Below are positions 30,815 through 50,028 of a stretch of DNA of 64,000 nucleotides, in pieces. Numbering within the stretch: the first letter of the stretch is position 1; the number at the start of each line of letters is the position of its first letter. This stretch comes from an uncultured Chloroflexia bacterium (lineage in GTDB: Bacteria > Chloroflexota > Anaerolineae > JAAYZQ01), in NCBI GenBank assembly GCA_963700285.1, contig CAVOXA010000001.1, positions 1,120,001-1,184,000 of the forward strand, given 5' to 3'. The notes beneath the pieces are model-generated. The model was not told the origin of the DNA. It searched no databases and worked only from the letters and a program-made list of their open reading frames with translations. The position numbers were made by a program, and so were the translations under genes.

Positions 30815-30850
30815 TTTGGAATCCTCCTTTATGATCTGTCGCTTGGTCTC

Positions 30851-30883
30851 AGTATACCCCATGGGCGTGACAAAAGCGTGACA
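30851..30883 (-). promoter_or_regulatory. SARP-type direct repeat TGTCACGC-TTT-TGTCACGC, 8 bp upstream of -10 TATACT
   Basis: The 19-mer is identical to 59099-59117, with 11-bp periodicity and the same spacing to the -10. Confidence 0.8.
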
Positions 30884-34421: not shown

Positions 34422-34540
34422 TTCTTCTCCTCCGTTTGGGTGACTGGTCAAGTTTTCCGAAGCTGGAGCAGTCTCCTATGTAGAAAGAACCTGTACTAGC
34501 CTCGCAAGGCTGCCCATTGCTCGTGCGCAGGATAGTGCCA

Positions 34541-35653
34541 TCAAGGGCGTCGTGGGGAGCCTCTGGCCCCCAGAAGGATAACCCCCAGAATCCTGAAGGG
34601 CCGCAGGTAACACAGTCGCAGGAAAGCGATGGTCAGGAGCAGAGTCAGAGCTGCGATAGTCAGGAACTCCAGACCTTCTGACAGAGCGGGCATGAACTTT
34701 TCCCAGAAGGAGACGAGGATCATCAGCACGGCGAGATGGGCGACATAGATGCCGAACACATCCTTCCCATATCCAGCAAGGTGACTCATGGTGCGACTTG
34801 CCCGTATGCGGTCCTCGAGCCCATAAAGAAAGGCGAGAAGCCAGGTTGCGGCAATGAACTGGAATGGCAAGCCACTTGGCAGGAAATAATCCCTGGCATA
34901 GGTCCCAAACTGCTCGAACTGTGCGCGCTCCATGACCAGGTAGGGTACGTAGGTAGCCACCGCCAAGAGAAGCAACCACCATTGGGCCCTCCTCAATCGT
35001 TCTAGTGCGGTGGGAGAGTAACCGAGCCACAGACCCCAGAAGAAAAAGACGGCCCAGGCGAAGAACAGTTTGCCATAGCGCCATTCGAAAGCATGCTGGT
35101 CGGAACCCTGTGTCCAGAGCAACCTTCCCGAAATCGCATAGAATGCAATGGAGCTGAGGGCCGACAGGAGCAAGCAAATGAGCAGCACCTTCCGGCTGAT
35201 GTGCTTGGCTAGCAGCGTGTAGAGAAGAAGGAACTGGAGCAGGACAAAGATATAGTAGAGATGTATGAATCCGGTTGTCAGGTTGAACAAGGTCTGCCCA
35301 TTGATGGCCAAATTGCCCTGCAAGGCTCCAAGAACAAACATGTACACGATGTTCCAGGCAAAAAAGGGCACGACGAGCGTGTGGAACCGGCGCTGCCAGA
35401 AACGCCTGGCGTCCAGGCGATAGTCCGGATCGCGGTGATGGAGGCCCAATACCAATCCCGAGATTATGAAAAACAGGGGCACGACAAAGCGGGCCAGCGG
35501 CGAGATGAGGGTGTACAGCCACGTGCTGTGCACGTCTGGCGCTGTAAGCCCGGCAGTATGCAACAGTACGACGACGACTATTCCGATGACCCGAGCTATC
35601 TCGATATAGCTTAGCCTTACCCTTGATGAAGCGGGATTCGTTTGGTTTTCCAT
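34541..35653 (-). CDS. Acyltransferase-3 family membrane protein
   Basis: RLSYIEIARVIGIVVVVLLH, RFVVPLFFIISG, HLYYIFVLLQF, FGIYVAH. Confidence 0.85.
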   Translation of the reverse strand: MENQTNPASSRVRLSYIEIARVIGIVVVVLLHTAGLTAPDVHSTWLYTLISPLARFVVPLFFIISGLVLGLHHRDPDYRLDARRFWQRRFHTLVVPFFAWNIVYMFVLGALQGNLAINGQTLFNLTTGFIHLYYIFVLLQFLLLYTLLAKHISRKVLLICLLLSALSSIAFYAISGRLLWTQGSDQHAFEWRYGKLFFAWAVFFFWGLWLGYSPTALERLRRAQWWLLLLAVATYVPYLVMERAQFEQFGTYARDYFLPSGLPFQFIAATWLLAFLYGLEDRIRASRTMSHLAGYGKDVFGIYVAHLAVLMILVSFWEKFMPALSEGLEFLTIAALTLLLTIAFLRLCYLRPFRILGVILLGARGSPRRP

Positions 35654-35717
35654 GTGCCTGATCTCTTCTCCGTGCGGCGTTTCTGCCTGCTGCCAACCAA
35701 ACTTCATTGGTCAGCTT

Positions 35718-36974
35718 TCAAGGATCCACTCTGTCCGCGATGCCAATGCGGACAGGATCCGTCGTATAGTCAAAGACCGAGTAGTAGTGATCCAGAAAGA
35801 CGGAACCTGCCAGCAGCAACCGGGAAGTACTTGAGTTGTCTGTGGGCTGCAAGCCATGGAACGCCAAACGCCAGCCATCAGGAAACTCTTGAAAATACTC
35901 TTGGGCTGAGAGTGTGTATTCATTCCGACCCCTACCCTCGTCCACGAGTGCGATGGTGAGATCAGGATAGTCATCGAGAGCTGCCGGTTCATGCACTGCT
36001 TGGGGCCTGGCACCGTTGTCGGTGATTCGATTGACGATATCGTCCACCAGGGCCGGATCCCCCTTGAACCTTGAGGAACCCGTATCGAGGGCAAAAGCGG
36101 CCCCGCTTGAGGGTAGCGCTATTGGATCATCTCCGACCCTTATCTCACCCAATCTGACAGACCATAGGTCAGATGCGCTATCGGCAGAAGCTATGCCTCG
36201 GCTAACGGGATAGTATTTGAGGCTTGCTGGATCGTATCTTTTCTCGTTGAAGCCGCCGAGAACAACCTCTCCCCTGTTGAGTTCACGACTTGTCCAATAC
36301 GATACAAGTTTTCTATCCACCCATTCCTCTGCCAACAATAGATCCAGCAACTGGGTTGACATACCTTCCGCATTCACCGAGGGAAAGGCCAGCGAGCCAT
36401 CTTGAACCAGATCGTCCCAATTGGTGTTGGCGGTGCCGTCTGGGTTTTCTCCGTCTATCAGCGTCACAGCCTCCAGAAACCTCATGTCTGGAATGCTATA
36501 GAGCTGTTGGTCCTGCTTTCCACGGTGTGGACCGACCGCCCAGAAGTGCCAGGTATCTTGCCCGACCTTGAACTGGAACTTGCCCCATGGTCCCAATTCG
36601 CTGTCTCGTACCTGTTGATCGATCCAAACATGAGTTGCCGAGAGCTGTGGGTCGTAGCGACGGTGATGGCGGCACGGGTTGGTATCGCACTCTCGCGAGG
36701 TCACCCACGTGCTGCTCGTTCCAGTATCCATGATGAACTTGAACAACTGACCTGCCGAACCGGCATCGGCGGGGGATCCTCCACCTATGGCAAGCTCACC
36801 ATACCATGGTGAGGCACCGTTGTCTTTTGCTGGCCCCATGTGCAGCGAAATCACCAGTGCTTTGGTTCTGTTCGGCTCGATGGCAGAGCAGGAGGATATG
36901 GCCGTCAGTGCTGCGGCAATCAGGAAAAGCGCCGGAACCGGCCTGACTGCTGCCCTACCAAAGATTCTGCTCAT
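35718..36974 (-). CDS. Pepsin-like (A1) bilobed aspartic protease, probable lipoprotein
   Basis: WYGELAIG, FIMDTGTSSTWV, C...C...YDP, FALDTGSS, LLAGSVFLDHYYSVFD...RIGIA; signal peptide ending ISSC. Confidence 0.85.
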   Translation of the reverse strand: MSRIFGRAAVRPVPALFLIAAALTAISSCSAIEPNRTKALVISLHMGPAKDNGASPWYGELAIGGGSPADAGSAGQLFKFIMDTGTSSTWVTSRECDTNPCRHHRRYDPQLSATHVWIDQQVRDSELGPWGKFQFKVGQDTWHFWAVGPHRGKQDQQLYSIPDMRFLEAVTLIDGENPDGTANTNWDDLVQDGSLAFPSVNAEGMSTQLLDLLLAEEWVDRKLVSYWTSRELNRGEVVLGGFNEKRYDPASLKYYPVSRGIASADSASDLWSVRLGEIRVGDDPIALPSSGAAFALDTGSSRFKGDPALVDDIVNRITDNGARPQAVHEPAALDDYPDLTIALVDEGRGRNEYTLSAQEYFQEFPDGWRLAFHGLQPTDNSSTSRLLLAGSVFLDHYYSVFDYTTDPVRIGIADRVDP

Positions 36975-37012
36975 CGGCTGCCCCCTTTTCCACGAGGAAC
37001 ACGTGCTCGCAG

Positions 37013-37225
37013 CTAGTAAATCTCTGGCATGTCGATCGGTGCTGGCTGCGGTTTGCAGACCCCGCAGTAGAGAGCGTCGGTAACTACCACGGCTTTGGGT
37101 GTCTCATTCTTGCCCACGAAAATGGTCAGGATGAATGGTTTCTTGGATACATGCTCCTTGCAGACGGCTCGTCCGCAGAAACGGCAGGTACCCTGAGCTG
37201 GTTGGTTGCACTGCCAGCAATTCAT
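37013..37225 (-). CDS. Small Cys-rich zinc-finger-like protein (DUF2180-like)
   Basis: CWQC...CRFC...CKEH...CGVC; GGAG RBS. Confidence 0.7.
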   Translation of the reverse strand: MNCWQCNQPAQGTCRFCGRAVCKEHVSKKPFILTIFVGKNETPKAVVVTDALYCGVCKPQPAPIDMPEIY

Positions 37226-37374
37226 GTAAGCTCCTCGCTTTCTTCCGTCTTTTGCCCAGAACCTCTACGCTGAGTCGGTGTCGGAGCAGAACTATCCCTG
37301 GACAGAGGGTGCTGCGCCTCGCTCTATCCCGTTCGGATCGCTGGCTCCCTTGTTAGGGTAGGACCTCTTCAGGA

Positions 37375-38796
37375 TCAGAGTCGCAGATCGTTCTCTTTCT
37401 CAGCGCCCTGTGGCTGTGTTGTGAGGCTCCCACCCATGGTCAGGTCGCGGAGTACGTTTCCAGCCCAAGCCGCAGCGACAAACTCCTCATATGCAACGTG
37501 CTCTGGCTCCACGTAGTAAAAGCTCGAAAATACCTGGGGATAGTCCCGGATCATTCGATCCATTTCGGTGGTGCTCAAGTCCGCGAATCCAGTCGAGAAG
37601 GACGAGGGCACAGCGGCGAGTCTGAGCCGTGAGGCGTATCGTGTGGTGAACGGCGTCTTGGGCAATGGGGTCACCACTAGAATCTGGCTTCTGGCTGCAC
37701 CGATGCTCAGGAAGTGCTGGTGCAGTGAAAGGGTTTCCTGGAGGTCCTGCTTTGTCTCCCAGGGAAAGCCCACGACGAGAGAAGTTGTGACCCGGAACCC
37801 ATAAGCAGTTGCCGCCTCGACCGTTCTGCGCGCCTGTTCTACATCGAGATTCTTGCCGATACGCCTCTGTACCTGCTGGGAGCCGCTCTCGATGCCAAAG
37901 TAGATGTGCCGGCATCCTGCACTCTTCATATTCGCCAGCGCCTCGATGGGAAGGCTGTCTGGCCTGAGGTAACAGAACCAGGTCACCTCGTCGCCAGCCT
38001 CCATAGCATGAAGAAACTCGGCAAGCCAGTCCTCGTTTACAGCAAAGAGATCCTGTACGAGAAACACGTTCTTCAGCCCATAGCTGCGTACGAGCATCTG
38101 TAGTTGCTCAGCCAAAAGCCGCGGAGACTTCTGGCGCATTTGCCTGCGCCAGAAACCCGAAGTCGAGCAGAAGCAGCATCCGTGGGGGCACCCGCGTCCA
38201 GGTTCATAGGGAAGGAATCTGCCCAGGAGCGCTTCATCAAAGTGTGGATAGGCCCGATAGTCAGGAATCGCCAGGCAATCCAGATCGGGCAGCAGCGGAG
38301 CGGGCGGCGTCGAGAGGACCTTCCCATTAGATCGGTAGGTGAGGCTGGCTGCACTCTGAGGGTCCCTTCTGCCATCGATAACCTCTACTAGGCCGAGGAC
38401 GGCTCGTTCTGCCTCCCCCCGAACGACATAGTCGATCCAGGGAAAGGCCGCCATCGATTCCTCGGCTACGATGGATGCCTGCGACCCACCCAGGACGACT
38501 CGAGTCTGCGGCGAATGGCGTTTGACTTCCCTGGCCAAGAGCAGGACGAGTGGATAGCTGTTGCACATGGTAGAAAAACCTACCCAATCGGGCCCAGTCG
38601 CCACAATGTCAGCGGCCCAGCGGTCCAGGGCCGTATTGGTGTTGGTATTTCTGGAATCCCCCTGGCCAGGGTAATAGATCGTGCAATGATGTCCGGCGTT
38701 CGTAAGAACCTGATGTAGAGATAGGACGCCCAGTGGAAAATAGGGCGCCATCTTTTGCCCTTGGATGTCTGGGGCAGGTACTAGTACCACCTGCAT
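37375..38796 (-). CDS. B12-binding radical SAM enzyme (RiPP maturase 4)
   Basis: PYFPLGVLSL, VGFSTMC, VVLGG, VRGEAE (cobalamin-binding domain); GRGCPHGCCFC; FGIESGS. Confidence 0.93.
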   Translation of the reverse strand: MQVVLVPAPDIQGQKMAPYFPLGVLSLHQVLTNAGHHCTIYYPGQGDSRNTNTNTALDRWAADIVATGPDWVGFSTMCNSYPLVLLLAREVKRHSPQTRVVLGGSQASIVAEESMAAFPWIDYVVRGEAERAVLGLVEVIDGRRDPQSAASLTYRSNGKVLSTPPAPLLPDLDCLAIPDYRAYPHFDEALLGRFLPYEPGRGCPHGCCFCSTSGFWRRQMRQKSPRLLAEQLQMLVRSYGLKNVFLVQDLFAVNEDWLAEFLHAMEAGDEVTWFCYLRPDSLPIEALANMKSAGCRHIYFGIESGSQQVQRRIGKNLDVEQARRTVEAATAYGFRVTTSLVVGFPWETKQDLQETLSLHQHFLSIGAARSQILVVTPLPKTPFTTRYASRLRLAAVPSSFSTGFADLSTTEMDRMIRDYPQVFSSFYYVEPEHVAYEEFVAAAWAGNVLRDLTMGGSLTTQPQGAEKENDLRL

Positions 38797-38920
38797 ACGC
38801 TCTTGCCTCCATTCGTTGCCGCTGGCTCAGATGCCCGTATCTTCAACGATGTGGGTCGCCATGCCGCACAAGCGCCAAAGCCGCCACTCATCTTCAATGC
38901 GAAAGTCATTCCAGGCCCGA

Positions 38921-38953
38921 GCTGGAGGAAGGGAGCATCCCTCCGGCTTCAGC
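38921..38953 (-). promoter_or_regulatory. Conserved stem-loop after precursor A4
   Basis: GCTGGAGG..GGGAGCATCCCTCC..CTTCAGC; homologous to the hairpins after the other three precursors. Confidence 0.6.
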
Positions 38954-38981
38954 CTTGCCGTTCTGCACTTCCCCTGCCAAC

Positions 38982-39212
38982 TCACATAGGGATTCCAACA
39001 AAATCCCAATGCGCTTCTTTCGTCAGCCTTTCATCGAGGTCTGTACTGAGGGCTTTCAGATCTCTTTCTTTGAGGGCAGCCATCTGCTTTTCTGTCAGGT
39101 CATAGCCAGCGTCCTTGACGGTTTTCTCCGGGTTCTCCACCAGGCTGGCCCGGAATTCAGGATCGGCCACCATCCGTCCGATCAGCTCGTGAATCTCTTT
39201 CTCAGTTGCCAT
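38982..39212 (-). CDS. RiPP precursor A4 (NHLP-clan leader; putative core EAHWDFVGIPM)
   Basis: AGGAGGTGA RBS; leader LIGRMVADPEFRASLVENPE...GYDLT...LDERLTK. Confidence 0.9.
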   Translation of the reverse strand: MATEKEIHELIGRMVADPEFRASLVENPEKTVKDAGYDLTEKQMAALKERDLKALSTDLDERLTKEAHWDFVGIPM

Positions 39213-39388
39213 TTCGCTCACCTCCTTTCCTCGTTAGATGGTATTTGTTCAGGAGCCGCAGGGCAAGCTGCTCCCTGGGTCAGAGTTCACTGCGCCTCTG
39301 GCCAGCTTGCCCCCTGTCCTTGGTGAACGAGCTATGGACTGGCACTCTATTTCGGTGAGGTGAATTGCTCTCAGTTTCAGCCCCTTTT

Positions 39389-40798
39389 CTACTCTGTGCT
39401 ATTGGGCACTCTCCCTTCGCTGAGGTCACGCAGAGCATTGCTGGCCCAGGACGCGGCAACGAACTCCTCGTAGGAGACGAATTCCGGTTCCAAGTAATAG
39501 AAATTCGAAAAGATTTGAGGATATTGCCGGATCATCCTCTCCATCTCGGCGTTTCGGAAATCATCGAGGCCCCTCGACCAGGAGGAGAGCACAGGAGCAA
39601 GGGTGAGCCGTGAGGTACATTGGGTTGTCAAGGGTGTTTTGGGCAAGGGAGACAGCACATACATCTGGCTTCTCGCCACACCGATGCTCAGGAAATGCTG
39701 GTGCAGAGAGAGGGTCTCTTGGAGATCATCCGCTGTCTCCCAGGGAAAGCCCACAATGAAGGAGGTTACAACCCCCATACCACAGGCTACGGCTGCCTCG
39801 ATGGTCTTGCGTGCCCTGGCAAGGTCCACATTCTTTTGCAGTAGCGCCTGCACCCGTTGGGAACCGCTCTCGACGCCGAAAAAGATGTGTCTGCATCCCG
39901 CTCTGTGCATATCAGCCAGAGTGTGCGCGTCCACGCTGTCTGGGCGGAGAGCGCAGCCCCAGCTAACGGCGTCCTTCGCCTCAATAGCGCGAAGAAAAAC
40001 GGCCAGCCAGTCATGGTCCACGGCAAAAAGATCCTGCACCAAGGCCACGTTCTTTACCTGGTACCTGCGGGCCAGGTTCCCGATCTGTTCAGCCAGCAGG
40101 TAAGGAGTCTTCTGGCGCCGCCGGCGGCGCCAGAAGACAGAGGTCGAGCAGTAACTGCATCCGTATGGGCATCCGCGCCCCGCCTCCAAAGGCATGCTCT
40201 CATCTCTAGCACCATCATGTCCTCGAGTTAGTGCCTCGTCGAAGCGCGGATAGGCCCTGTGGTTTGGGACCGGCAAGGAATCGAGATCGTTCACCAGGGG
40301 CCTGAGTGGTGTCGACACAATCCTACCATCAGCTCGGAAGGTCAGACTGAGTACTGCATCCGGCTTCCGGCTCCCGTCCATCACCTGGACAAGGTCGAGG
40401 ATAGCTTGTTCTGCCTCTCCTCGAATGACATAGTCGATCCAGGGAAAGGCTCCCAACGACTCTTCGGCTACAGCTGAGGCCTGCGGTCCACCCAGCACGA
40501 CCGGTGTCTGTGGAGAAAGGTGTTTCACTGCCTTTGCCAGGAGCAGAATCAGCGGATAGGTATCGCACGTGGTCGAGAAACCCACACAATCGGGTTCTGC
40601 CGCCACGATTTCAGCCGCCCAGCGGTGTATGGCCACGTCGGGCTCGGCTGGTTCAGGCAGATCTTGGCCCGGATAGTAGATGGTGCAGCCGAATCCAGCG
40701 TCACATAGTATTTGGTTGAGTGAAAGCGCACCCAGTGGAAAGTAGGGCACCGGCCTGCGCTGCCGGAGGTGTAGGGCAGGCACCAGCACGATATTCAT
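39389..40798 (-). CDS. B12-binding radical SAM enzyme (RiPP maturase 3)
   Basis: Same domain motifs; GRGCPYGCSYC; start overlaps the stop region of maturase 2. Confidence 0.93.
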   Translation of the reverse strand: MNIVLVPALHLRQRRPVPYFPLGALSLNQILCDAGFGCTIYYPGQDLPEPAEPDVAIHRWAAEIVAAEPDCVGFSTTCDTYPLILLLAKAVKHLSPQTPVVLGGPQASAVAEESLGAFPWIDYVIRGEAEQAILDLVQVMDGSRKPDAVLSLTFRADGRIVSTPLRPLVNDLDSLPVPNHRAYPRFDEALTRGHDGARDESMPLEAGRGCPYGCSYCSTSVFWRRRRRQKTPYLLAEQIGNLARRYQVKNVALVQDLFAVDHDWLAVFLRAIEAKDAVSWGCALRPDSVDAHTLADMHRAGCRHIFFGVESGSQRVQALLQKNVDLARARKTIEAAVACGMGVVTSFIVGFPWETADDLQETLSLHQHFLSIGVARSQMYVLSPLPKTPLTTQCTSRLTLAPVLSSWSRGLDDFRNAEMERMIRQYPQIFSNFYYLEPEFVSYEEFVAASWASNALRDLSEGRVPNSTE

Positions 40799-42243
40799 AA
40801 ACTCTTGCCTCCACCGATTGATGACGACCCCAGCGCTTCTTCATCAGGTTGTACGCGAGTCTGTGCTGCAACCTGTTCCCCTTTGCTGCATCTATACAGA
40901 GCATTACCAGCCCAAGCCGCAGCAGCAAACTCCTCATGCGGGACGAATTCTGATTTCACATGATAGAAGCTCGAGAAAATCTCAGGGTATTGCCGGATCA
41001 TTCGCTGCATTTCGGCCGTTCGAAAGTCTTCGAGCCCCATCGACAAGAACGATGGTAGAGGGGCAAGGGAGAGCCTTGAGGTGTATTGAATTGTGAGCGG
41101 CGTCTTGGGCAACGGACACAGCACATAGACCTGGCTCTTTGCCACACCGATGTCTAGAAAATGCTGGTGCAGGGAGAGAGTTTCCTGAAGATCTTGCCTT
41201 GTCTCCCAGGGAAAGCCCACAATGAACGAGGTGATGACCCCCATACCATAGGAGACTGCTGCTTCGATGGTCTCGCGCGTCCTGGTCAGGTCCAGGTTCT
41301 TCTGCAACCGCTTCTGTACGCGTTGGGAACCGCTCTCGACACCAAAGAAAACATGTGTGCATCCTGCTCGATACATATCGGCCAGGGTCCGCGCGCCAAC
41401 GCTGTCTGGTCGGAGACGACAGGTCCAGGTTGCCCTGTCACCAGTCTCCATGGCTCCAAGGAAGGCGCCCAGCCAGTCGCGGTCCAGGACAAGGAGATCC
41501 TGGGCCAACAGCACGTTTTCCACCTGGTACCTGCGGACAATCATCCCAAGCTGGTCAGCCAGCAGGTCTGGCGACTTCTGACGCATACGTCTGCGCCAGA
41601 AGTCAGAGGTGGAGCAGAAGCTGCACCCATAAGGACATCCGCGTCCAGGTTCGAAAGGAATGAAATCATCCAGCAGTGCTTCGCGGAAATAGGGATAGGC
41701 CTGGTAGTCAGGCAATGCCAGGGAATCCAGCTCGGTCAATAGTGGCACAAGGGGTGTTGAAACGATCTTCCCATTTGCTCGGTATGTGATACTGCCTGCT
41801 CCTTGTGGTTCACTCCCGTGTTCGATTACCTGGACAAGGCCGAGGACAGCCTGTTCTGCCTCCCCCCGAACGATATAGTCGATCCAGGGAAAAGCGGCCA
41901 TCGACTCCTCGGCCACGACCGAGGCCTGTGGTCCGCCCAGGACCACGGGCGTCTGTGGCGACAAATGCTTCACCGCCCTGGCCAGGAGCAGAATCAGGGG
42001 ATAACTGTTGCACACAGTTGAAAACCCCACCCAGTCAGGCTCTGCCGCCACGACTTCAGCCGCCCACTGGCGTATGGCCATATCGGTCTCGGCTAGATCG
42101 CCTGCATGCAGGTGCGGATAGTAGATGGTGCAATCGTGCCCGGCGTCCGACAGTACCTGGTGTAGAGACAGAACTCCCAGTGGGAAGTAGGGCATCGTCC
42201 TTCGCCCTTTGATGTGTGGCGCAGGTACGAGAACCACGTGCAT
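40795..42243 (-). CDS. B12-binding radical SAM enzyme (RiPP maturase 2)
   Basis: Same domain motifs; GRGCPYGCSFC. Confidence 0.93.
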   Translation of the reverse strand: MHVVLVPAPHIKGRRTMPYFPLGVLSLHQVLSDAGHDCTIYYPHLHAGDLAETDMAIRQWAAEVVAAEPDWVGFSTVCNSYPLILLLARAVKHLSPQTPVVLGGPQASVVAEESMAAFPWIDYIVRGEAEQAVLGLVQVIEHGSEPQGAGSITYRANGKIVSTPLVPLLTELDSLALPDYQAYPYFREALLDDFIPFEPGRGCPYGCSFCSTSDFWRRRMRQKSPDLLADQLGMIVRRYQVENVLLAQDLLVLDRDWLGAFLGAMETGDRATWTCRLRPDSVGARTLADMYRAGCTHVFFGVESGSQRVQKRLQKNLDLTRTRETIEAAVSYGMGVITSFIVGFPWETRQDLQETLSLHQHFLDIGVAKSQVYVLCPLPKTPLTIQYTSRLSLAPLPSFLSMGLEDFRTAEMQRMIRQYPEIFSSFYHVKSEFVPHEEFAAAAWAGNALYRCSKGEQVAAQTRVQPDEEALGSSSIGGGKSL

Positions 42244-42306
42244 ACGCTCATGCCTCCATTGCTTGCTGACGGATCAGGTATACCTTTCTAGGAATACAAC
42301 CGCACT

Positions 42307-42420
42307 TGTCATTCTGAGGAGCGAGCGCAGTGAGCGACGAAGAATCTCGGCTGCGCCCAGCTATCAGTTTCTCGCCATGTAACCGGGATTCTTTGCTCTA
42401 TTCAGTCGCCCAGAATGACA
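42307..42420. repeat. REP/MITE-like palindromic element
   Basis: Terminal inverted repeat TGTCATTCTG...CAGAATGACA with inner GAAGAATCTC/GGGATTCTTT arms. Confidence 0.7.
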
Positions 42421-42503
42421 CACGGCTTGGACTGCGGTCGTAGTACTAGATGCACGCCAAGGTCTTCATTCGCTTGCCATTCGGTAGTCATGCCGGGCCA
42501 GAA

Positions 42504-42531
42504 CTGGAAGAGGGGTGCTCCCCTCTTCCAG
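42504..42531 (-). promoter_or_regulatory. Conserved stem-loop after precursor A3
   Basis: Perfect 12-bp stem CTGGAAGAGGGG-TGCT-CCCCTCTTCCAG with no U-tail. Confidence 0.7.
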
Positions 42532-42568
42532 CCCCAGGTATGCACCGCCAGTTCCTCTTGCTGACCTA

Positions 42569-42805
42569 CTAGAAGATAAAGGGGACACCGAGAAAGTCCC
42601 AATGCGCTTCCTTGGATAGCCTTTCATCCAGATCTGTGCTGAGGGCTTTCAGGTCCCGGTCCTTGAACGCAGCCATTTGCTCTTCGCTCAGATCATAGCC
42701 CGCGTCCTTGATTGTTTTCTCCGGGTCCTCGACCAGGCTGGCCCGGAACTCGGGATCGGCCACCATTCGTCCGATCAACTCGTGAATCTCCTTCTCAGTT
42801 GCCAC
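42569..42805 (-). CDS. RiPP precursor A3 (putative core EAHWDFLGVPFIF)
   Basis: GTG start after AAGGCGGTGA; leader nearly identical to that of A4. Confidence 0.9.
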   Translation of the reverse strand: MATEKEIHELIGRMVADPEFRASLVEDPEKTIKDAGYDLSEEQMAAFKDRDLKALSTDLDERLSKEAHWDFLGVPFIF

Positions 42806-42924
42806 GTCGCTCACCGCCTTTCTCCATAAGATAGTGTATCCTCGGACATCGGCAATCAAGATGCGCCCATAGGCAGAGGATACGGTGTCTCTGCCTGTCC
42901 GGCCTCCGATCCGTGGCTCGCTCG

Positions 42925-44418
42925 CTACGGATCGACTCGCTCCCCGGCAAGCGAGCCGGGGGCAGAGCTTCTTGAGTGAGGCGAATCACTTACATGCTTT
43001 GCACCTGTTCGTGCCTGTGGTACAGGGTCTTCCCCCTTGCTCAGAGTACACAAAGCATTGCCTGCCCAGGCCGCGAGACGGAACTCTACGTGCGGCACAA
43101 ATTCTGTTTCAATATGGTAGAAGCTTGAAAAGATCTGCGGGTAGCGCCGAATCAAACCATCCATTTCGGCGTTCCAGAAGCGTTCCATCTCCCTCGGCGC
43201 GACCGACTGTGTGCTGTCAATCCTGAGCCTCGAGGCGTAGCGGGTTGTGATCTCGGTCTTGGGCAACGGAGAAAGTGGATAGATCCGGGCGCTATCCACA
43301 CCAGTATCCAGGAAATGCTGGTGCAGGGAAAGGGTATCCTGGAGATCCTGCCTTGTCTCCCAGGGAAAGCCCACAATGAGAGAAGTGGTAACGCTTATCC
43401 CTGTAGCAACGGCTGCCTCGACAGTCTTGCATACTTGCGAAACGTCGAGGTTTTTGCCCATACGCTGTTGCACCCGCTGTGAACCGCTATCCACACCGAA
43501 AAAGATCTGTCTGCACCCCGCCCGATTCACAGCGGACAGCTCCTCTGGTTCAATGCTGTCTGGTCGAAGATAGCAGCCCCAGCTCACTTTGCCGCAAGCT
43601 TCCATAGCCTGAAGAAAATCAGAAAACCAGCCCTTGTTCACGGCAAAGATATCCTGCACCAAGAACACAGATCCTACTCCTTGGCTATGGGCGAGCGCCT
43701 CTAGCTGTGCTGCCAGCAAACCTGGCGACTTCAGACGCATGCGCCTGCGCCAATAGTCTGAAGTCGAGCAAAAGCAGCATCCATAGGGGCATCCGCGCCC
43801 AGGTTCAAAAGGCAGCAATCCATCCTCGAAAGGGGGCTTCCCGCCCAGGAGCGCTTCACGGAAGTATGCATAAGCCTGGTAGTCAGGTAGCGTCAGGGAA
43901 TCGAGATCGCTCAACAGTGGCACGAGGGGTGTGGAAACGACATTGCCGTTGACCCGGTGCGTGAGACTACCTGCTTTTCCCGACCCACTCCCTTTTCCGA
44001 TTACCTGGACCAAGTCGAGAATAGCGTTCTCTGCCTCCCCCCGGACAACATAGTCAATCCAGGGGAAAGCCGCCATCGACTCCTCGGCCACGACGGACGC
44101 CTGTGGTCCACCCAGGACGACCCATGTTTGTGGGGATAGCTGCTTCACCGCTCGGGCCAGGAGCAGAACGAGTGGATAGCTGTTGCACATGGTCGAAAAA
44201 CCCACCCAATCGGGCTGTGTCGCCACGATGTCAGCCGCCCAGCGCCCGATGGCTGCTTCGGGGTCGGCTGGGTTGGCAGCATCCTGGAGCGGGTAGTAGA
44301 TCTTGCTATCGTAGCCTGCGTCAGCTAGCACCCGGTGTAGAGACAGGACGCCCAGCGGGAAATAGGGCGCTATCCTACGCTCCTGGATATGTGGCGCGGG
44401 TACCAGTACTACATGCAT
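42925..44418 (-). CDS. B12-binding radical SAM enzyme (RiPP maturase 1)
   Basis: Same domain motifs; GRGCPYGCCFC; FGVDSGS. Confidence 0.93.
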   Translation of the reverse strand: MHVVLVPAPHIQERRIAPYFPLGVLSLHRVLADAGYDSKIYYPLQDAANPADPEAAIGRWAADIVATQPDWVGFSTMCNSYPLVLLLARAVKQLSPQTWVVLGGPQASVVAEESMAAFPWIDYVVRGEAENAILDLVQVIGKGSGSGKAGSLTHRVNGNVVSTPLVPLLSDLDSLTLPDYQAYAYFREALLGGKPPFEDGLLPFEPGRGCPYGCCFCSTSDYWRRRMRLKSPGLLAAQLEALAHSQGVGSVFLVQDIFAVNKGWFSDFLQAMEACGKVSWGCYLRPDSIEPEELSAVNRAGCRQIFFGVDSGSQRVQQRMGKNLDVSQVCKTVEAAVATGISVTTSLIVGFPWETRQDLQDTLSLHQHFLDTGVDSARIYPLSPLPKTEITTRYASRLRIDSTQSVAPREMERFWNAEMDGLIRRYPQIFSSFYHIETEFVPHVEFRLAAWAGNALCTLSKGEDPVPQARTGAKHVSDSPHSRSSAPGSLAGERVDP

Positions 44419-44537
44419 GCTCTCTTACTCCAGTTCTTGCTGAAGGCTCAACTGCCCCTTCTTGGAACTTGCGGGCTTGCATCCTGCGCAGCAGCCGTGA
44501 GCCTGTTCCCTTCAGATTCGAAAGCTATTTAGAGCCA

Positions 44538-44569
44538 GGGGTGGAGGAGGGGAGCCCCCCTCCATCCCC
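44538..44569 (-). promoter_or_regulatory. Conserved stem-loop after precursor A2
   Basis: GGGGTGGAGG-AGGGGAGCCCC-CCTCCATCCCC. Confidence 0.65.
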
Positions 44570-44605
44570 AGGATTGCTGCAGCAGGTTGCGCGTACCAGC
44601 GCCCA

Positions 44606-44842
44606 CTACCAGGTCGGGTTCGTGCCAACCCCGCCGAATCCGACCTCCTTAGACAGTCTGTCGTCCAGATCTGCGCTAAAGCCTTCCAGGTCTACTTTCT
44701 TGAGTGCAGCCAGTTGCTCTTCCGTCAGATCATAGCCAGCGTCTTTCACTGCCTTTTCGGGGTCCTCCATCAGGCTGGCCCGGAAATCAGGGTCGGCCAC
44801 CGTTCGGCCGATCAGCTCGTGTATCTCTTTCTGCGTTGCCAT
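44606..44842 (-). CDS. RiPP precursor A2 (putative core EVGFGGVGTNPTW)
   Basis: GAGGTGA RBS; leader MATQKEIHELIGR...LDDRLSK. Confidence 0.9.
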   Translation of the reverse strand: MATQKEIHELIGRTVADPDFRASLMEDPEKAVKDAGYDLTEEQLAALKKVDLEGFSADLDDRLSKEVGFGGVGTNPTW

Positions 44843-45049
44843 TTCGCTCACCTCTTTTCTCCCTCTGATGGCAAATGCTTCAGAAGCTGAGAGCAAGGTG
44901 CAACCGGAATCAGAGAACGCTACCTTTCCGCCCATCTTGCCCCCAAGCTCAGGCTCCTCGCCGGGGAAAGGCGCCCAGAATCAGAACAGCAGATTGCTTC
45001 CGAATCCACTAGGACCGATTCGCCCCAAGTCACCCTCTCAACGCTAGGC

Positions 45050-45085
45050 CCTGCCGAAGAAGGAGAGCCTCCCCTCCGGCGCAGG
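45050..45085 (-). promoter_or_regulatory. Conserved, imperfect stem-loop after precursor A1
   Basis: CCTGCCGAAGAAGGAGAGCCTCCCCTCCGGCGCAGG. Confidence 0.55.
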
Positions 45086-45113
45086 CTTGCTTTGGCGGAC
45101 AATGCAGAGTGCT

Positions 45114-45350
45114 CTACGGCCAGGGCGCGATTCCAACCTCACCTACTCCGACTTCCTTGGACAGTCTGTCGTCCAGATCTGCGCCAAGATCCTCCAGGTC
45201 CGCTTTTTTCAGTGCCGCCAGTTGCTCTTCTGTTAGATCATAGCCGGCCTCCTTCACCGCCTTTTCCGGGTCCTCCACCAGGCTGGCCCGGAACTTGGCG
45301 TCGGCCACTGCACGGCCGATCAGCTCGTGAACCTCCTTCTCAGTTGCCAT
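45114..45350 (-). CDS. RiPP precursor A1 (putative core EVGVGEVGIAPWP)
   Basis: AGGAGGTGA RBS; leader MATEKEVHELIGR...LDDRLSK. Confidence 0.9.
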   Translation of the reverse strand: MATEKEVHELIGRAVADAKFRASLVEDPEKAVKEAGYDLTEEQLAALKKADLEDLGADLDDRLSKEVGVGEVGIAPWP

Positions 45351-45386
45351 TTCGCTCACCTCCTTCCTCCGTTGGATAGTATGCGC

Positions 45387-46436
45387 TCAAGAATCAAGCG
45401 GCAAGATGCTCCCGGGCTCTAGGGACATGTGCCCTCCTCTCATCTTGCTGCCAGTTCCAGGTTGCCCTACGGGGACAGGCGGTTTGGGGATCAGAGCGGC
45501 GAATTGCTCCCGAATCCATTCCGTGCGCCTGGCTTCGAGATCTACGCTCAACTGTCTGGCAGCCTCGTCACGGAGCGCTAGGTACGCTTCCAGGTAGGGA
45601 ACAGCCAGAGCAGAAGCGCTTTCCAGCGCCCGCCGGCGGTATTCCGCAATCAGTCCCAGATACTCATCCAACACTGCGCCGGCAAACAGAGCCTTCTCTA
45701 CGTCAGTCTCAGTCAGTGTGGTGTGAGGGTCGAGTCTGCGATGAGCTAGCACCCGGGTGAGGAAATAGGTATAGCTTCCCTGCGCCAGGTCACCGCGCCA
45801 ATCCTGCAGATCATCAGCCAGCAGAAAGGACATCATCAAGTCGTCTATCATCTTTTCCAGGAGCTCAGTGGCTTCCTTTCGCCCGGCCAGCAAGCACAGT
45901 GCCGCGCAGGAGATCTTTAGTGGGGCGGCTTTGCGTGCCAGGAGAATCAGATCTGCTTCCTCAAAGGCGCGCACCTGCCCCCAATGCCACTGCCGCTCCC
46001 ACGAAATGCTCAGTCCCCACTGGGCGATGTATTCCTCAAAAAGCGCCCAAAACGCTGGCTCGGAGCCGAAAACGCGGTGATACGGCGCCAGCGCATCGAG
46101 AAGAAGAAAGGTAGCCAGTGGTTGGAGATGCCCCTCGTACTCCTCAGGCTCGGCATCCATCAGCTCGTCCTGCAGCATGAAATAGAGCACCAGGAAGGTA
46201 CTGCTCAGGCCTACCAGACGGCAGACATTGCGATCCAGGGCAAGGGGCTCCTCCAGCCAGAAGGGCAACAGATATGCGATGTGAAAGGCCCGAGGCATCT
46301 TGTGTTCCAGTGACCACTGATCCTCAAGGCGAGCCCGTCCGGGCTGGCGCAGCGCCGGTGGATACGTGGAGATGCGCTCCAGACAGGCATCCAGCAACCA
46401 CTTACACTCCCGGTCAAAGTCACGAATTGGGTCCAT
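45387..46436 (-). CDS. Class-I isoprenoid-synthase-fold protein (putative ComQ-like peptide prenyltransferase)
   Basis: Helical composition; two Asp-rich motifs QDELMD and ADDLQDWRGD; RKAAPLK segment. Confidence 0.7.
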   Translation of the reverse strand: MDPIRDFDRECKWLLDACLERISTYPPALRQPGRARLEDQWSLEHKMPRAFHIAYLLPFWLEEPLALDRNVCRLVGLSSTFLVLYFMLQDELMDAEPEEYEGHLQPLATFLLLDALAPYHRVFGSEPAFWALFEEYIAQWGLSISWERQWHWGQVRAFEEADLILLARKAAPLKISCAALCLLAGRKEATELLEKMIDDLMMSFLLADDLQDWRGDLAQGSYTYFLTRVLAHRRLDPHTTLTETDVEKALFAGAVLDEYLGLIAEYRRRALESASALAVPYLEAYLALRDEAARQLSVDLEARRTEWIREQFAALIPKPPVPVGQPGTGSKMRGGHMSLEPGSILPLDS

Positions 46437-47895
46437 GTTGCCCTCCGGCTTGCGATCTCCTGGTGCTGCGGCTTCGGAGAAAGCAGCGTACCCGGTGAGC
46501 GCCCTCGCCGGCCAACAGAAGCGCTTTGGTGGTCAGTCCCAGGATAAGGTTTGCGCCGGCCACCAGCATCAGCCCACCGACGAGGATGATGGGCAGGACG
46601 TCTTTGCCGCTGACCAATTCCCCTTCCATCTGAGCTATCTCTCTGTACCAAAGGTACACGGCCATGACCACAGCGAAAGCCGTCCAGGCAGCCGCTAGAA
46701 TGCCAAAGACGGCAAAAATCCTCTGTTCGTGGCTGAACTTGCTCCACCCCTTGAACAGCTTGGTCGGCAATTCCTCCCGGACGAAGGCCAACGATCTCTT
46801 GCGCAGCATGGGTATCTCTACCCAGTCCACCAGGGCGTAGTAGCCATCCAACTCCAGGAGCGGATTTACATTCATCAGGGCTCCAAAGTAGCCTATCAGG
46901 GCTGCTTTGAACAGAACCCCATTGAAGGCGAAGGAGGGAAAGAGACCAGCTACCACCGCCAGCAGGCTGCCCAGCAGCAGCGTTGTGAACGGGCCGGCCA
47001 GCGAAACCAGGATGCGAGCCCGCTTGGGTGCCATCCAGATATCCGTGGTATCCACAAAGAAGGCGGGCGAACCCATGTAAAGCATCAGCCCCCCTTTGGG
47101 CACTCGACGGCCATACTGCTTGCATGTCAGGGCGTGACCGCACTCGTGAAAGAACGTCATCACATAGTAGAGCGCCAGCAAGATAACCAGGCCCAGGCCA
47201 AAGGAACCGGCCGCGCTGAGCAGGGGATAGTTGCCGGCCAGCAGCTCCCGTGCGAAGAAGACCAGCCCGGCTACGATCACCAGCCCGTACAGGATCCTGG
47301 CCGGGCGCGTGAATAGCAGCCAGCCCCCCCACCGGTAGAGCGAATCGAAGAACCCATCGGCGTTTTTCAGGCTGAACTCCCTCTGAGCGGATCTTTCGGA
47401 GAAGCGTTGGAGTCGGTGGGCCAGGGTGTGGGCAGCAAGCTGCTCCTCGATGCATTGGAATAGGTCCACCGGCTTTTCCGCCAGGAATTGGTGCGTGCCA
47501 AGCTCCGTGAGGAGATTGGCCAGTCGCTCAAAGGGAAAGGCCCCGAATTCTGAGTAGTAGGCCATGGCCAGGTCGCTGACAGAGTGCTCGCCATCCATGA
47601 GCCCCCACAGTAAGTAGTCGCGGGCGTCGACCTTAAGGTAGGTGTCCGCCCTTGGGTTGTTCAAGACATAGTATGCCTCCCCTTGGGCGTTTTGGTGGCA
47701 CGACACCTCGACGCCGGTCACGCCCTTGGGCTTCTTCATGGAGGGGTCCAGCCCTTCCTGCAGGATCGCCCACAGGTCGACCGCCGTTGATCTCTCCTCT
47801 GCGGTCGCCTGCTGCAATCGCATCCACATGGTGGAGGCTGGTGTACCCTCTTCTGCCACCCCGTTCTCTTCTTTCTGCAATAGATTCATCCCCAC
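46420..47895 (-). CDS. RRE/PqqD-domain M50 (site-2) membrane metallopeptidase
   Basis: YYVLNNP...YLKV...LWGLMDGEHSVSDL (PqqD-like); HECGH; LAGP; NVNPLLELDGYY; multiple TM helices. Confidence 0.85.
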   Translation of the reverse strand: MGMNLLQKEENGVAEEGTPASTMWMRLQQATAEERSTAVDLWAILQEGLDPSMKKPKGVTGVEVSCHQNAQGEAYYVLNNPRADTYLKVDARDYLLWGLMDGEHSVSDLAMAYYSEFGAFPFERLANLLTELGTHQFLAEKPVDLFQCIEEQLAAHTLAHRLQRFSERSAQREFSLKNADGFFDSLYRWGGWLLFTRPARILYGLVIVAGLVFFARELLAGNYPLLSAAGSFGLGLVILLALYYVMTFFHECGHALTCKQYGRRVPKGGLMLYMGSPAFFVDTTDIWMAPKRARILVSLAGPFTTLLLGSLLAVVAGLFPSFAFNGVLFKAALIGYFGALMNVNPLLELDGYYALVDWVEIPMLRKRSLAFVREELPTKLFKGWSKFSHEQRIFAVFGILAAAWTAFAVVMAVYLWYREIAQMEGELVSGKDVLPIILVGGLMLVAGANLILGLTTKALLLAGEGAHRVRCFLRSRSTRRSQAGGQHGPNS

Positions 47896-47971
47896 TTCCA
47901 GTCGGGCGACCTTTGCCCCACAGGCTCATGTCTCCAGGCGTACAACCCCGCTGGATGCCGGCTCGTTCGGG

Positions 47972-48533
47972 CTAAGACAGCATGATGAGGACACTAATGC
48001 CGGTGCCCAAGGTACCAAGCGCGCCAAACACTAGCCCCACAGTCCAGAGGAACTTGCGCTCAGTCCCGATGGCCATCCCGCCCAGGGTAATGCCAAGGGC
48101 GAGCAACGCTACGGCGATCGCAAAGACCTCATGGGCATTGGCAGAGACACGAACCATCTCCTCTTCGCTGGCCGTGCTGGCCTTCAACTCCCTCGTTCTG
48201 TCCTCAAGTGCTGCCACCTTCTCGATCTCGGCCGGGTCTGGCGCTTTTTCCCAGGATGGTCAGGAGCTCGTGCTTGGACGTGAGCGTCTTCACATACTCG
48301 CGGTCGCTCTCCAGACGATCAACCCCGATGATCTCTTGGGTTCTGTCCAGTAAGGCTCTGTTGGCGGTCATACCCGCCAGCAAGCCTCCAAGTGCGGCCA
48401 GTAGGGGCATGATCAGCGTGGTCAGGGCGACATGTCGGTGCCACCTGGGTTCTTCCGGCCCCACTTCTCGCAACTCTACTGCCTCCACAACTGCATCCTG
48501 TGCCGTCTCTGCCATTTCTGTCAGTTCAGACAT
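47972..48533 (-). CDS. DUF4337-like membrane protein, frameshifted
   Basis: VALTTLIM..LAALGG helix, coiled coil, then FAIAVALLALGITLGGMAI; split into two ORFs at ~48240. Confidence 0.6.
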
Positions 48534-48580
48534 CGTGCCTCATTGACTCTCCGCATGATGATGATACGACGTCAGGGCGT

Positions 48581-50028
48581 TTACTCTTCTCCTGCCGTGA
48601 ACAGCGCCCAGGGCTGGGTTGGCCGGTCCTTGAGGTAGCCCTCCAGGTGGTCCCACTGCGGATGTTCGATGAGATGCTCGTCGGCGTCAAAGGCCATGCC
48701 GCTGGAACTGCCCCAGCGGGCCCAGAAGCTGAGGTCTGCGGCCAGGTCGCTGTCCATGACCTTGCCGTCCACTGCGCCCTGGGGCGCGTAGGGCAGCCGC
48801 GCGGGCCAGTACTCAAAGGCGTCCAGCTCGTAGTGGCCCTCGATGGTGCGCGAGCCGGGGTTGGTCTTTTTCAGATAGACGTCATAGTGGTCGGCGATGA
48901 TCTTTTTGGCGTTCTTGATATCGATCTTGCCCTTGTACTGCTCCATGAGCTGGGTCAGGCGCACGCGCCGGGCGCCCGCCGGCATCCGGATGTCGTCGTA
49001 GCCGGTGTTGGCGCACTCCAGGTTGCGGATCTGGGGGTCGATCGGGCGCGTTAAAGCCGACATAGTAGCCGTCCTTGGTGCGCTCGACGGCCGAGAACTT
49101 GAGGCCCAGTTCGAAGCGCATGATCTCGCCCGTGTTCCGGTCGGCCAGCAGCCAACTGTTGGCATAGCCGCCGTTGTTCTCCTTCTTCATCAGCGTCCAC
49201 CCAACCGTCGAGATCGTCGGCATACTGCATGGCCCGGCGCACCCGAAGGAACTCGGGTACCTCGTCGGCGTCGTATTGGCTGTAGCCGCCGATGGTGGTC
49301 TCGGTGCCCATCAGGCCGGCGTCGGTCACGAAAAAGTCGGTAAAGCTGGCGATGAGCCCCGGCATGCTCTGCATGAACATGCGGTGGCCTTCAGCCGGCT
49401 GGAGGTCCAGGATCTCGTTCATGTACTGGCCGTGAGTGAAATGGTCCCAACTGTTGTGGGCCATCACGATATCACCATCCCGGGTGTAGGAACCGGTAGC
49501 GACAAAGGCGCTGCAGTGGTCCTGGTCCTGCGGCACGTACTGGCCGTACCACTGGGACTGCTCGTTGGGCCACCAGTAGCCGACCAGTTCCTCGTAGCCG
49601 TTCCAGGTCAGGACCTCTTGCCAGGTGATATCGGTGCCGGCCTCCTGGGCGCCTTCGGCAATGCCCCTCATCTCCTCCTGTAGCTCCTCGTCGAGATGTT
49701 TGACGAACTGTTCCTGCGCCTGCTCGACAAAGAACTCCCACTCCATGCCGGTGTCCATGAAGGTCAAGTCCTTTGTGTTGGCCAGGATCTCGGCCAGCTC
49801 CGGCGCCACCAGGTAGCCGTACTGGAAGCCCCGCTCGTAGGGTTCGCCCTCGATGTGGATATAGATCCAGCCATCCTGTTCGAGGCGGTAGCCCTTGCCG
49901 TCGGGACTGGTCTGGCGCTCTTCGGAGCGGGCCGTGGGTAGCGATGTGGCCGATGACGATAACACCAGTACCACAAGTAGGGCTAGAATCACGCTGGCCA
50001 TTCCAACCTTCAATCCGCGGGTCTTCAT
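48581..50028 (-). CDS. Secreted C45/phospholipase-B-like Ntn hydrolase, frameshifted
   Basis: Signal peptide; GEPYERGFQYG; HCSAFVATG...IVMAHNSW; GTETTI; NGGYANSWL. Confidence 0.8.

Follow-up and report, generated by a model that had tools for sequence, protein, structure and literature searches.

What would be made by a locus in which four short peptide genes alternate with four vitamin B12-dependent enzymes? The question is raised by positions 37375-47895 of a 64,000-nucleotide stretch of DNA (hereafter the window; positions 1,120,001 to 1,184,000 of contig CAVOXA010000001.1, assembly GCA_963700285.1) from an uncultured Chloroflexia bacterium. An earlier interpretation from the letters alone (the sequence-only reading) had proposed a system for peptides that are ribosomally synthesized and then post-translationally modified (RiPPs), and this proposal holds. 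We put at about even the chances that the products are Trp-prenylated, C-methylated lipopeptides of 11-13 residues, whose leader is cut by a membrane protease in which a RiPP recognition element (RRE) is fused to an M50 domain. We describe the cluster as a variant of the PalX/PalQ type of RiPP on a wider, mostly Chloroflexota precursor-protease chassis, and not as a system without precedent. To judge from the sequences, its parts are known in kind and their combination is new; it would become new biology only once the chemistry is shown.

Organization of the cluster

Ten intact minus-strand genes, free of frameshifts, occupy 37375-47895 in the order RRE-M50 protease, prenyltransferase-fold protein, A1, A2, rSAM1, A3, rSAM2, rSAM3, A4 and rSAM4 (A, precursor; rSAM, radical S-adenosylmethionine enzyme), just as the sequence-only reading had laid them out. 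That reading had missed a Cys-rich gene beside them, a Gln-to-Leu change in the prenyltransferase homologue and the shortened C-termini of the rSAMs. In the following list, trans-IDS stands for trans-isoprenyl diphosphate synthase, and FARM and SARM for its first and second Asp-rich motifs.

46420-47895, minus strand: RRE-M50 protease, 491 amino acids (aa), daptide MpaP-like, predicted leader peptidase; start uncertain (47895, 47889 or 47859)
45387-46436, minus strand: homologue of PalQ-family trans-IDS-like peptide prenyltransferases; FARM/SARM Asp intact, Leu205
45114-45350, minus strand: precursor A1, predicted core EVGVGEVGIAPWP, Trp penultimate; NF038399 77.8 bits
44606-44842, minus strand: precursor A2, predicted core EVGFGGVGTNPTW, C-terminal Trp; NF038399 76.8 bits
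42925-44418, minus strand: rSAM1, B12-dependent radical SAM enzyme, 497 aa, ApyD-like, short C-terminus; PF02310 and PF04055, NF050148 228 bits
42569-42805, minus strand: precursor A3, GTG start, predicted core EAHWDFLGVPFIF, internal Trp; NF038399 70.8 bits
42485-42568, minus strand: stem-loop after A3; z -3.47
40795-42243, minus strand: rSAM2, B12-dependent radical SAM enzyme, 482 aa; NF050148 255 bits, model positions 26-454 of 645
39389-40798, minus strand: rSAM3, B12-dependent radical SAM enzyme, 469 aa; NF050148 247 bits
38982-39212, minus strand: precursor A4, predicted core EAHWDFVGIPM, internal Trp; NF038399 69.3 bits
37375-38796, minus strand: rSAM4, B12-dependent radical SAM enzyme, 473 aa; NF050148 258 bits
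37013-37225, minus strand: Cys-rich putative Zn-binding accessory protein, 70 aa, CxxC-x7-CxxC...C..H...CxxC; likely eleventh cluster gene

The protease and prenyltransferase genes overlap by 17 bases and rSAM2 and rSAM3 by 4 bases, and clear purine-rich ribosome-binding sites accompany the precursor genes and most enzyme genes. Every enzyme tested is under purifying selection. Because the rSAM paralogues are 59-68% identical, with a ratio of nonsynonymous to synonymous substitution rates (dN/dS) of 0.21-0.28 at a dS of about 1, and the leaders have a dN/dS of 0.06-0.21, the repeated pattern reflects neither an assembly repeat nor decay. Among the 21 proteins scanned, no match to YcaO, LanB/M, SPASM or C39 was obtained, which bears out the absences claimed from the sequence alone.

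Precursor peptides

The four precursors share 65 residues ending in the conserved Lys of LD(D/E)RL(S/T)K and then diverge into tails of 13, 13, 13 and 11 residues, in agreement with the 65-residue leader and short variable C-termini described earlier. All four pass both NF038399 (Os1348; 69-78 bits, cut-off 40) and PF14407 (Franean1_4349; 48.5-58.5 bits, cut-off 48), and the assignment of these leaders to the Os1348/Franean1_4349-like part of the nitrile hydratase leader peptide (NHLP) clan is upheld; on the proteusin leader model TIGR03793 the four stay below the cut-off (18-21 bits versus 50.9). Leaders fall into two pairs, A1/A2 being 83% and A3/A4 89% identical, with 73-75% identity across pairs. 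Each core contains exactly one Trp, which is terminal only in A2, penultimate in A1 and internal in A3 and A4. The cores end in P, W, F and M (A1 to A4), and none has a Tyr or a C-terminal Thr.

Similar cores recur beside similar enzymes. In stored locus L092, a near-identical A1-type core, QVGVGEVGLAPWPT, lies between a prenyltransferase and a second prenyltransferase. In L094, a prenyltransferase (72%, Leu205), a precursor with the EAHW-type core EAHWNFAGIFY and a fragment of a short-clade rSAM (82% to rSAM1 over 111 aa; this clade is described below) stand in a row. The leader family exceeds the cut-off in 124 of 401 genomes of the host's class, a tally that takes in one unpublished genome (G357); if our interpretation is true, the cluster would provide the first product chemistry for this family.

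A PalQ-like prenyltransferase homologue

The isoprenoid-fold protein has no match in Pfam or NCBIfam, nor to the ComQ model. Its AlphaFold2 model (pLDDT 89) adopts an isoprenoid synthase fold, and most of its top trans-prenyl synthase hits in Foldseek have a TM of 0.62-0.69 (E about 1e-4), as the sequence-only reading had anticipated. Compared with PalQ of Paenibacillus alvei TS-15, the identity is 24% (E 7e-29) and the hhalign probability 100% (E 2.4e-39); this reference locus was found through the PalX core, and in its enzyme K39, D89 and D93 fall where they have been published. All four metal-binding residues are kept, PalQ D89/D93 corresponding to D90/D94 (FARM) and D200/D204 to D208/D212 (SARM) of the window enzyme, and dN/dS against four relatives is 0.21-0.35, indicating purifying selection. 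PalQ prenylates the Trp of an NHLP precursor, aided by the leader (PMC10853753). All characterized trans-IDS-like prenyltransferases act on Trp, and two of them, ComQ and ChrPC, prenylate an internal Trp (PMC13290415 section 2.4). By sequence, the protein is a PalQ homologue that would work like PalQ; it is not a strict member of that family because Leu205 replaces the defining Gln, though the Asp motifs are intact and selection is purifying. Polyprenyl synthase matches are present in the same genome, and both look split.

Trp as likely acceptor

A scan with the prenyltransferase alignment returned 80 loci, mostly from Paenibacillus and Cohnella. An open reading frame (ORF) with the leader pattern was found nearby in 56 of them, each time with Trp within the last three residues (56/56); at the other 24 loci the pattern caught none. 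An NHLP peptide that ends in Trp and comes after the prenyltransferase gene is the arrangement known from PalX/PalQ. Within 3 kb of a prenyltransferase homologue, Trp occurs in the last 13 residues of 29 of 38 distinct tails, including all 27 tails beside homologues at E<1e-30 (a cut chosen after the data were seen); at RRE-M50 loci without a prenyltransferase it occurs in 7 of 34. These tail counts refer to complete precursors found with a purpose-built leader hidden Markov model, among which kin are not independent, and leave out the own-genome loci L083-L090, cut ORFs and ORFs above 170 aa. A predicted complex of the prenyltransferase with A4 lends weak support, scoring 0.51 against 0.01 for the best control; contacts agree across runs at 72% or more and partner pLDDT is at least 72. 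Of 157 solved pairs 116 reach the mark, as do 2 of 215 mismatched ones, but those that reach it with 0.60 or less are only 18 solved pairs plus both mismatches. From these sequence patterns, Trp is the likely acceptor of the prenyl group, which sharpens into a PalQ-like Trp prenylation the earlier suggestion that the peptides are 'possibly prenylated'.

B12-dependent radical SAM enzymes

The call of four B12 radical SAM enzymes stands: each passes PF02310 (B12-binding) and PF04055 (radical SAM) and keeps CxxxCxxC. The sequence-only reading had named PoyC and TsrM as examples of such enzymes; the closest curated model is that of ApyD (NF050148), which leads other models by about 100 bits or more for all four, and PoyC/TsrM models are not among the matches shown. 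The RiPP C-methyltransferase model TIGR03975 gives 125-139 bits (cut-off 281.85) and the BchE and HpnJ models match as well, all curated cut-offs being missed. ApyD, which contains an RRE, forms (2S,3R)-beta-methyltyrosine in a RiPP (PMC11117315).

The four enzymes belong to a short-form clade (20 rows, SH-aLRT 100) together with 16 proteins of 358-481 aa and 50-65% identity, and the nearest relatives outside it are nearly all 557-715 aa long. The missing C-terminal part may correspond to the RRE. rSAM1 groups with P0196, from another metagenome, and rSAM3 with P0193/P0204/P0206; that both are closer to kin in other metagenomes than to their paralogues suggests old paralogues with separate roles. 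The cores having no Tyr, candidate methylation targets are Phe, Trp, His, Asp, Val or Ile. When the short-rSAM alignment was used to scan GTDB, the 80 loci retrieved had only 24-31% identity, and 400 other genomes of the same class gave five matches at E<=1e-70, none near the own-genome scores. We also considered, and set aside, a co-duplicated precursor-enzyme cassette; a quick rSAM tree does not resolve the four paralogues.

If the enzymes act as proposed, the cluster would offer four paralogous B12 methyltransferases with short, tractable substrates.

An RRE-M50 protease and a shared chassis

In the protease, the motifs HECGH and NPLLELDG are nearly invariant among 45 homologues. The daptide MpaP model NF041824 gives 168 bits, below its cut-off of 300, and PF02163 matches weakly. 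PqqD is matched by 27 of the 45 aligned homologues, though not by the window protease itself. The AlphaFold2 model shows three strands and three helices at residues 52-123 of P0002, a predicted domain that Foldseek pairs with the RRE TbiB1 (TM on target 0.71, E 0.19); Foldseek also retrieves the site-2 protease 3b4r (E 1.3e-3). The fusion of an RRE to an M50 (site-2) intramembrane zinc protease proposed by the sequence-only reading is thus sustained by motifs, homologues and structure models, and its predicted role is that of leader peptidase.

We collected 58 RRE-M50 loci, mostly from Chloroflexota and some of them short. An Os1348-like ORF is present in 32, the Cys-rich protein in 29, a prenyltransferase in 5 and a B12-rSAM in 3; in other loci the RRE-M50 gene is accompanied by YcaO, by additional radical SAM maturases or by a gene resembling a cyclase. 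This co-occurrence points to a constant core of precursor, RRE-M50 protease and Cys-rich protein, around which the tailoring enzymes vary. The Cys-rich protein has weak, below-cut-off matches to zinc-finger Pfam families and Atlas look-alikes at 0.96-0.97, whose commonest phylum is Chloroflexota, and its gene directly follows an RRE-M50 fusion on the host's own contig C5. The Cys-rich gene at 37013-37225 likely belongs to the cluster.

Related loci

Further arrangements of the same parts are found elsewhere. L095 has a prenyltransferase, STVGTVQPSW and RRE-M50. L001, L002 and L093 carry RRE-M50, a radical SAM peptide maturase, a precursor of the same family as those of the window with the core GCDWICYGY(Q/K)W(G), a prenyltransferase, a 600-aa ApyD-like enzyme and a cyclase-like gene. 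The nearer long rSAM relatives score 356-404 bits on the ApyD model. Contigs of run X3, compared at 80% likeness, have smaller versions of the cluster: RRE-M50, prenyltransferase, an A2-like peptide and one 5'-deleted rSAM; the end of a prenyltransferase running into an A3-like gene; and ends of rSAMs that abut the Cys-rich gene. Such joints belong to other organisms and so tell only of relatives that have been rearranged.

Proposed pathway and alternatives

The chemical steps, modified sites, prenyl chain length, cleavage site and role of the product are predicted here from the genes, their families and motifs, selection and co-occurrence. The folded leader would dock on the prenyltransferase, which would ionize a prenyl diphosphate at its Asp motifs and alkylate the indole of the single core Trp. 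Each rSAM paralogue would methylate its own site or its own neighboring peptide, through hydrogen abstraction by a 5'-deoxyadenosyl radical and methylcobalamin transfer, most likely at beta-carbons as in ApyD. The lipidated precursor might then partition to the membrane, where the RRE would bind the leader and the zinc site would cleave near LD(D/E)RL(S/T)K. Release through a membrane step is suggested because the cluster has no transporter gene. By analogy, we marginally favor a signal over an antibiotic as the product, because PalQ loci carry a histidine kinase (PMC10853753) and sister loci have Crp-like, FHA and kinase genes; the antibiotic activity to which the Os1348 cluster of Pseudomonas is tied (PMC7726476) points the other way.

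Several observations weigh against Trp prenylation and ApyD-like methylation of these cores. The Gln proposed to bind the indole NH in PalQ (Q197; PMC10853753), to which a 2026 review (PMC13290415) gives a key part in determining how Trp is recognized, is Leu205 in the window enzyme; in Ord1, mutation of the matching Gln (Q216A) leaves 4.2% of the yield (PMC12510300). PalQ activity is abolished by residues after the Trp (PMC10853753), and only A2 ends in Trp. Beside distant homologues (E>=1e-30), Trp occurs in only 2 of 11 tails. On the methylation side, the best model for all four rSAMs, ApyD, gives 228-258 bits against a cut-off of 750, the match stops at about position 454 of 645, some 190 short, and Tyr, the target of ApyD, is absent from the four cores. 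Among the stored loci, only L094 has a short-clade rSAM beside a precursor, and neither the GTDB scan nor the 400 same-class genomes gave any, the genomic context of about 15 further short-clade proteins lying outside these counts. Finally, in one related X3 contig the first 603 bases, which lead up to and into rSAM1 and contain its start, are missing, so an rSAM may be dispensable there.

The loss of the Gln may mean that acceptor or position is altered in the Leu205 enzyme. Its target might be a Trp position other than C3, the site at which prenylation yields the pyrroloindoline of PalX and ComX (the benzene ring, C2 or N1 instead), a Trp that an rSAM has already methylated, or a different residue, for instance the His in EAHW. 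Across 189 aligned homologues, site 205 is occupied by Gln 109 times, by Val 64 times and by Leu 8 times; the Leu carriers (these 8 and L094) are all close relatives, and Met202 accompanies Leu205 in 9 of 9. Both Asp motifs are intact under purifying selection, and both stored EAHW-core loci (the window and L094) combine Leu205 with a short-clade rSAM, L092 and L095 having Gln with near-terminal Trp cores. However, the link rests on two loci that are kin to each other, the Leu forms are not one clade on a quick tree, and the Val branch, where checked (L100, L106), still lies beside C-terminal Trp precursors, so that Gln is not always needed; we consider a changed acceptor unlikely. A division into two product lines sharing the protease, with A1 and A2 only prenylated and A3 and A4 only methylated, seems to us rather improbable. 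It would fit the gene order (A1/A2 follow the prenyltransferase, A3 and A4 each head an rSAM block), the pairing of the leaders and the strictness of PalQ for a terminal Trp (PMC10853753), but an A3/A4-type precursor directly follows the prenyltransferase in L094 and in an X3 contig, A2 also heads rSAM1, ComQ and ChrPC accept the internal residue (PMC13290415 section 2.4), and the predicted A4 complex, weak as it is, far exceeds its control.

The replaced Gln also leaves room for a prenyltransferase-fold protein of little catalysis, serving mainly as a leader-binding adaptor for rSAMs that have lost a C-terminal recognition domain. The rSAM clade does not exceed 497 aa where its nearest relatives nearly all have 557-715, ApyD is described as RRE-containing (PMC11117315), and both the window and L094 combine Leu205 with short rSAMs. 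This is countered by the four conserved Asp, the Trp kept in every core and the protease RRE, which could serve in trans, and we regard an adaptor as very unlikely. The chances are slim, too, that the rSAMs act away from peptide side chains, for example on the attached prenyl chain or a lipid, or perform non-methylating chemistry. B12-rSAMs also catalyze C-S, C-P, ring contraction and cyclization reactions, and every curated cut-off is missed with BchE/HpnJ models matching too; on the other hand, the lead of ApyD, the alternation of rSAM with precursor genes and the scores of the nearer long relatives on the ApyD model favor peptide methylation. That the locus is a chance assembly or a decaying duplication without peptide product is scarcely credible: the region is missing from the one same-genus genome and one relative has a 5'-deleted rSAM, but the frames are intact, dN/dS is 0.06-0.35 and the gene order is repeated in other datasets.

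Trp prenylation followed by C-methylation and leader cleavage can also be placed in a wider, though doubtful, scheme. Sediment Chloroflexota may have an RiPP family of their own, represented by this cluster: a PalQ-like enzyme re-tuned by the Gln-to-Leu change would act on an internal or pre-methylated Trp at a new position, short rSAMs would borrow leader recognition from a partner and, by duplication, have become site-specific methyltransferases, and the widespread chassis of precursor, RRE-M50 and Cys-rich protein would swap YcaO, SPASM, cyclase and prenyltransferase enzymes. A natural PalQ variant able to prenylate an internal Trp would do what PalQ does poorly, and the single Gln-to-Leu change makes the Trp-recognition mechanism proposed for trans-IDS-like prenyltransferases directly testable.

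Comparison with known systems

The claim that the cluster fits no recognized class was overstated, because an NHLP precursor with a Trp prenyltransferase is the PalX/PalQ arrangement (PMC10853753) and an RRE-site-2 protease is found as daptide MpaP (PMC10036551). Like P. alvei PalX/PalQ (PMC10853753), the window sets an NHLP-clan precursor next to a trans-IDS-like prenyltransferase, the enzymes being of one family, and it has the four Asp and a core Trp. It differs in its Os1348-type rather than PalX-type leader, four precursors, a terminal Trp only in A2 and Leu for Gln197, in the addition of four B12-rSAMs and an RRE-M50 protease, and in having no adjoining histidine kinase. The aminopyruvatide enzyme ApyD (NF050148; PMC11117315) is the best model for the rSAMs, with B12 and radical SAM domains in a RiPP context, but the window cores have neither Tyr nor a C-terminal Asp, and the cluster has no MNIO (multinuclear non-heme iron-dependent oxidase), P450 or ApyS and has four rSAM paralogues; the MNIO and a core with C-terminal Asp define the aminopyruvatide class. 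Daptide MpaP (NF041824; PMC10036551) likewise combines an N-terminal RRE with an intramembrane site-2 protease, in clusters with several precursors; the window peptides lack the invariant C-terminal Thr, its cluster has no dehydrogenase, aminotransferase or Dmp methyltransferase, and its protease reaches 168 bits where the cut-off is 300.

The Os1348/Franean1_4349 family (NF038399, PF14407; PMC7726476), whose cut-offs all four precursors pass, is defined by leader and not by chemistry, and its Pseudomonas cluster is a four-gene locus. ComX/ComQ and ChrPC (PMC13290415 section 2.4), with trans-IDS-like enzymes and internal Trp prenylation, set a precedent for A3 and A4, but the window has no ComQ model match and no cyclase gene in the cluster, the relatives L001, L002 and L005 having a cyclase. 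Our literature search, most subscription papers being outside its reach, turned up no publication that combines a trans-IDS-like prenyltransferase with B12-rSAMs or that deals with the chassis.

Proteusins such as polytheonamide combine an NHLP-clan leader with C-methylation by B12-rSAMs of the PoyC type. The window resembles them in its NHLP-clan leaders, its B12-rSAMs and the Val/Gly-rich cores of A1 and A2, whereas its leaders are below the TIGR03793 cut-off, its cores are very short, and it has no epimerase or C39 transporter.

Non-coding features

Besides the stem-loop after A3, purine-rich hairpins follow A1, A2 and A4 (z 0.27, -2.20 and 0.09, respectively), those after A1 and A4 not being beyond shuffles. 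The hairpins may stabilize the precursor mRNAs. Rfam gave no match in window positions 34000-50000, and promoter and terminator scans returned signals at or below chance. A short palindromic repeat at 42296-42350, between A3 and rSAM2, recurs in the genome as three weaker copies and is matched many times in public runs. RNA run X6 holds three pieces identical to the window, at 38915-39065 and 39087-39339 (A4) and 45078-45315 (A1). Being low-depth contigs of a run that was itself selected with this region, they are no demonstration of transcription, and we give them no weight as support. In a 19.9-kb control stretch, no listed piece exceeded 25 bases.

Other loci and genomic surroundings

Several other loci encountered in this survey deserve mention. 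The host genome (G000) has two more Os1348 loci, C14:140287-146478 and C5:262995-269565, with RRE-M50 fusions of 1141 and 1163 aa that have long C-terminal extensions. They contain Crp-like regulators, HD-domain-like and M16-like genes and, by eye, no evident tailoring enzyme, and are possibly a peptide signaling system. In L001 (362-7801), L002, L093 and L005, a squalene-hopene-cyclase-like gene stands alone next to the prenyltransferase, a radical SAM peptide maturase and an ApyD-like enzyme are also present, and the cores are of a Cys/Trp/Tyr kind; to go by their gene content, these are candidates for polycyclic-isoprenoid peptides. The Anaerolineales-type loci L029, L070, L097 and L099 have two prenyltransferases, a radical SAM maturase, YcaO and TIGR03975 methyltransferases, and cores such as ACWGKAQHICGWD with two Trp and two Cys. 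L134-L148, L150 and L155 (for example, L135 8951-11210) encode distant prenyltransferase homologues that keep the Gln, and the adjoining precursors end in RFIT, GNIT or GFT, with no Trp; in L135, the homologue adjoins an isoprenylcysteine-methyltransferase-like membrane gene.

The cluster sits in a variable region: the one same-genus genome (G001) lacks it, with almost no close DNA match at about 26000-60400 and long matches resuming near window position 60468. A pepsin-like aspartic protease gene (35718-36974, minus strand; PF00026 E 1e-28), encoding an N-terminus that looks like a signal or lipoprotein sequence, starts 38 bases after the Cys-rich gene. This protease family is mainly eukaryotic. 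We considered the gene as a core part and rejected it, there being no homologue in L001-L080 or L091-L165. A dipeptidyl peptidase IV lies at 32027-34451 (minus strand) over two ORFs (DPPIV_N; the end of DPPIV_N and S9), probably because of a frameshift or an error in the assembly. Enzymes of this kind take off X-Ala dipeptides, and the A3 and A4 cores begin with Glu-Ala. On the other side of the cluster, a DUF4337 gene (47972-48533) looks split and a phospholipase B-like gene (48581-50217, minus strand) seems split over two frames. The same variable region encodes, at 26156-30862 on the minus strand, a secreted protein of 1568 aa with, by eye, many FG-GAP-like repeats and a LamG-like domain.

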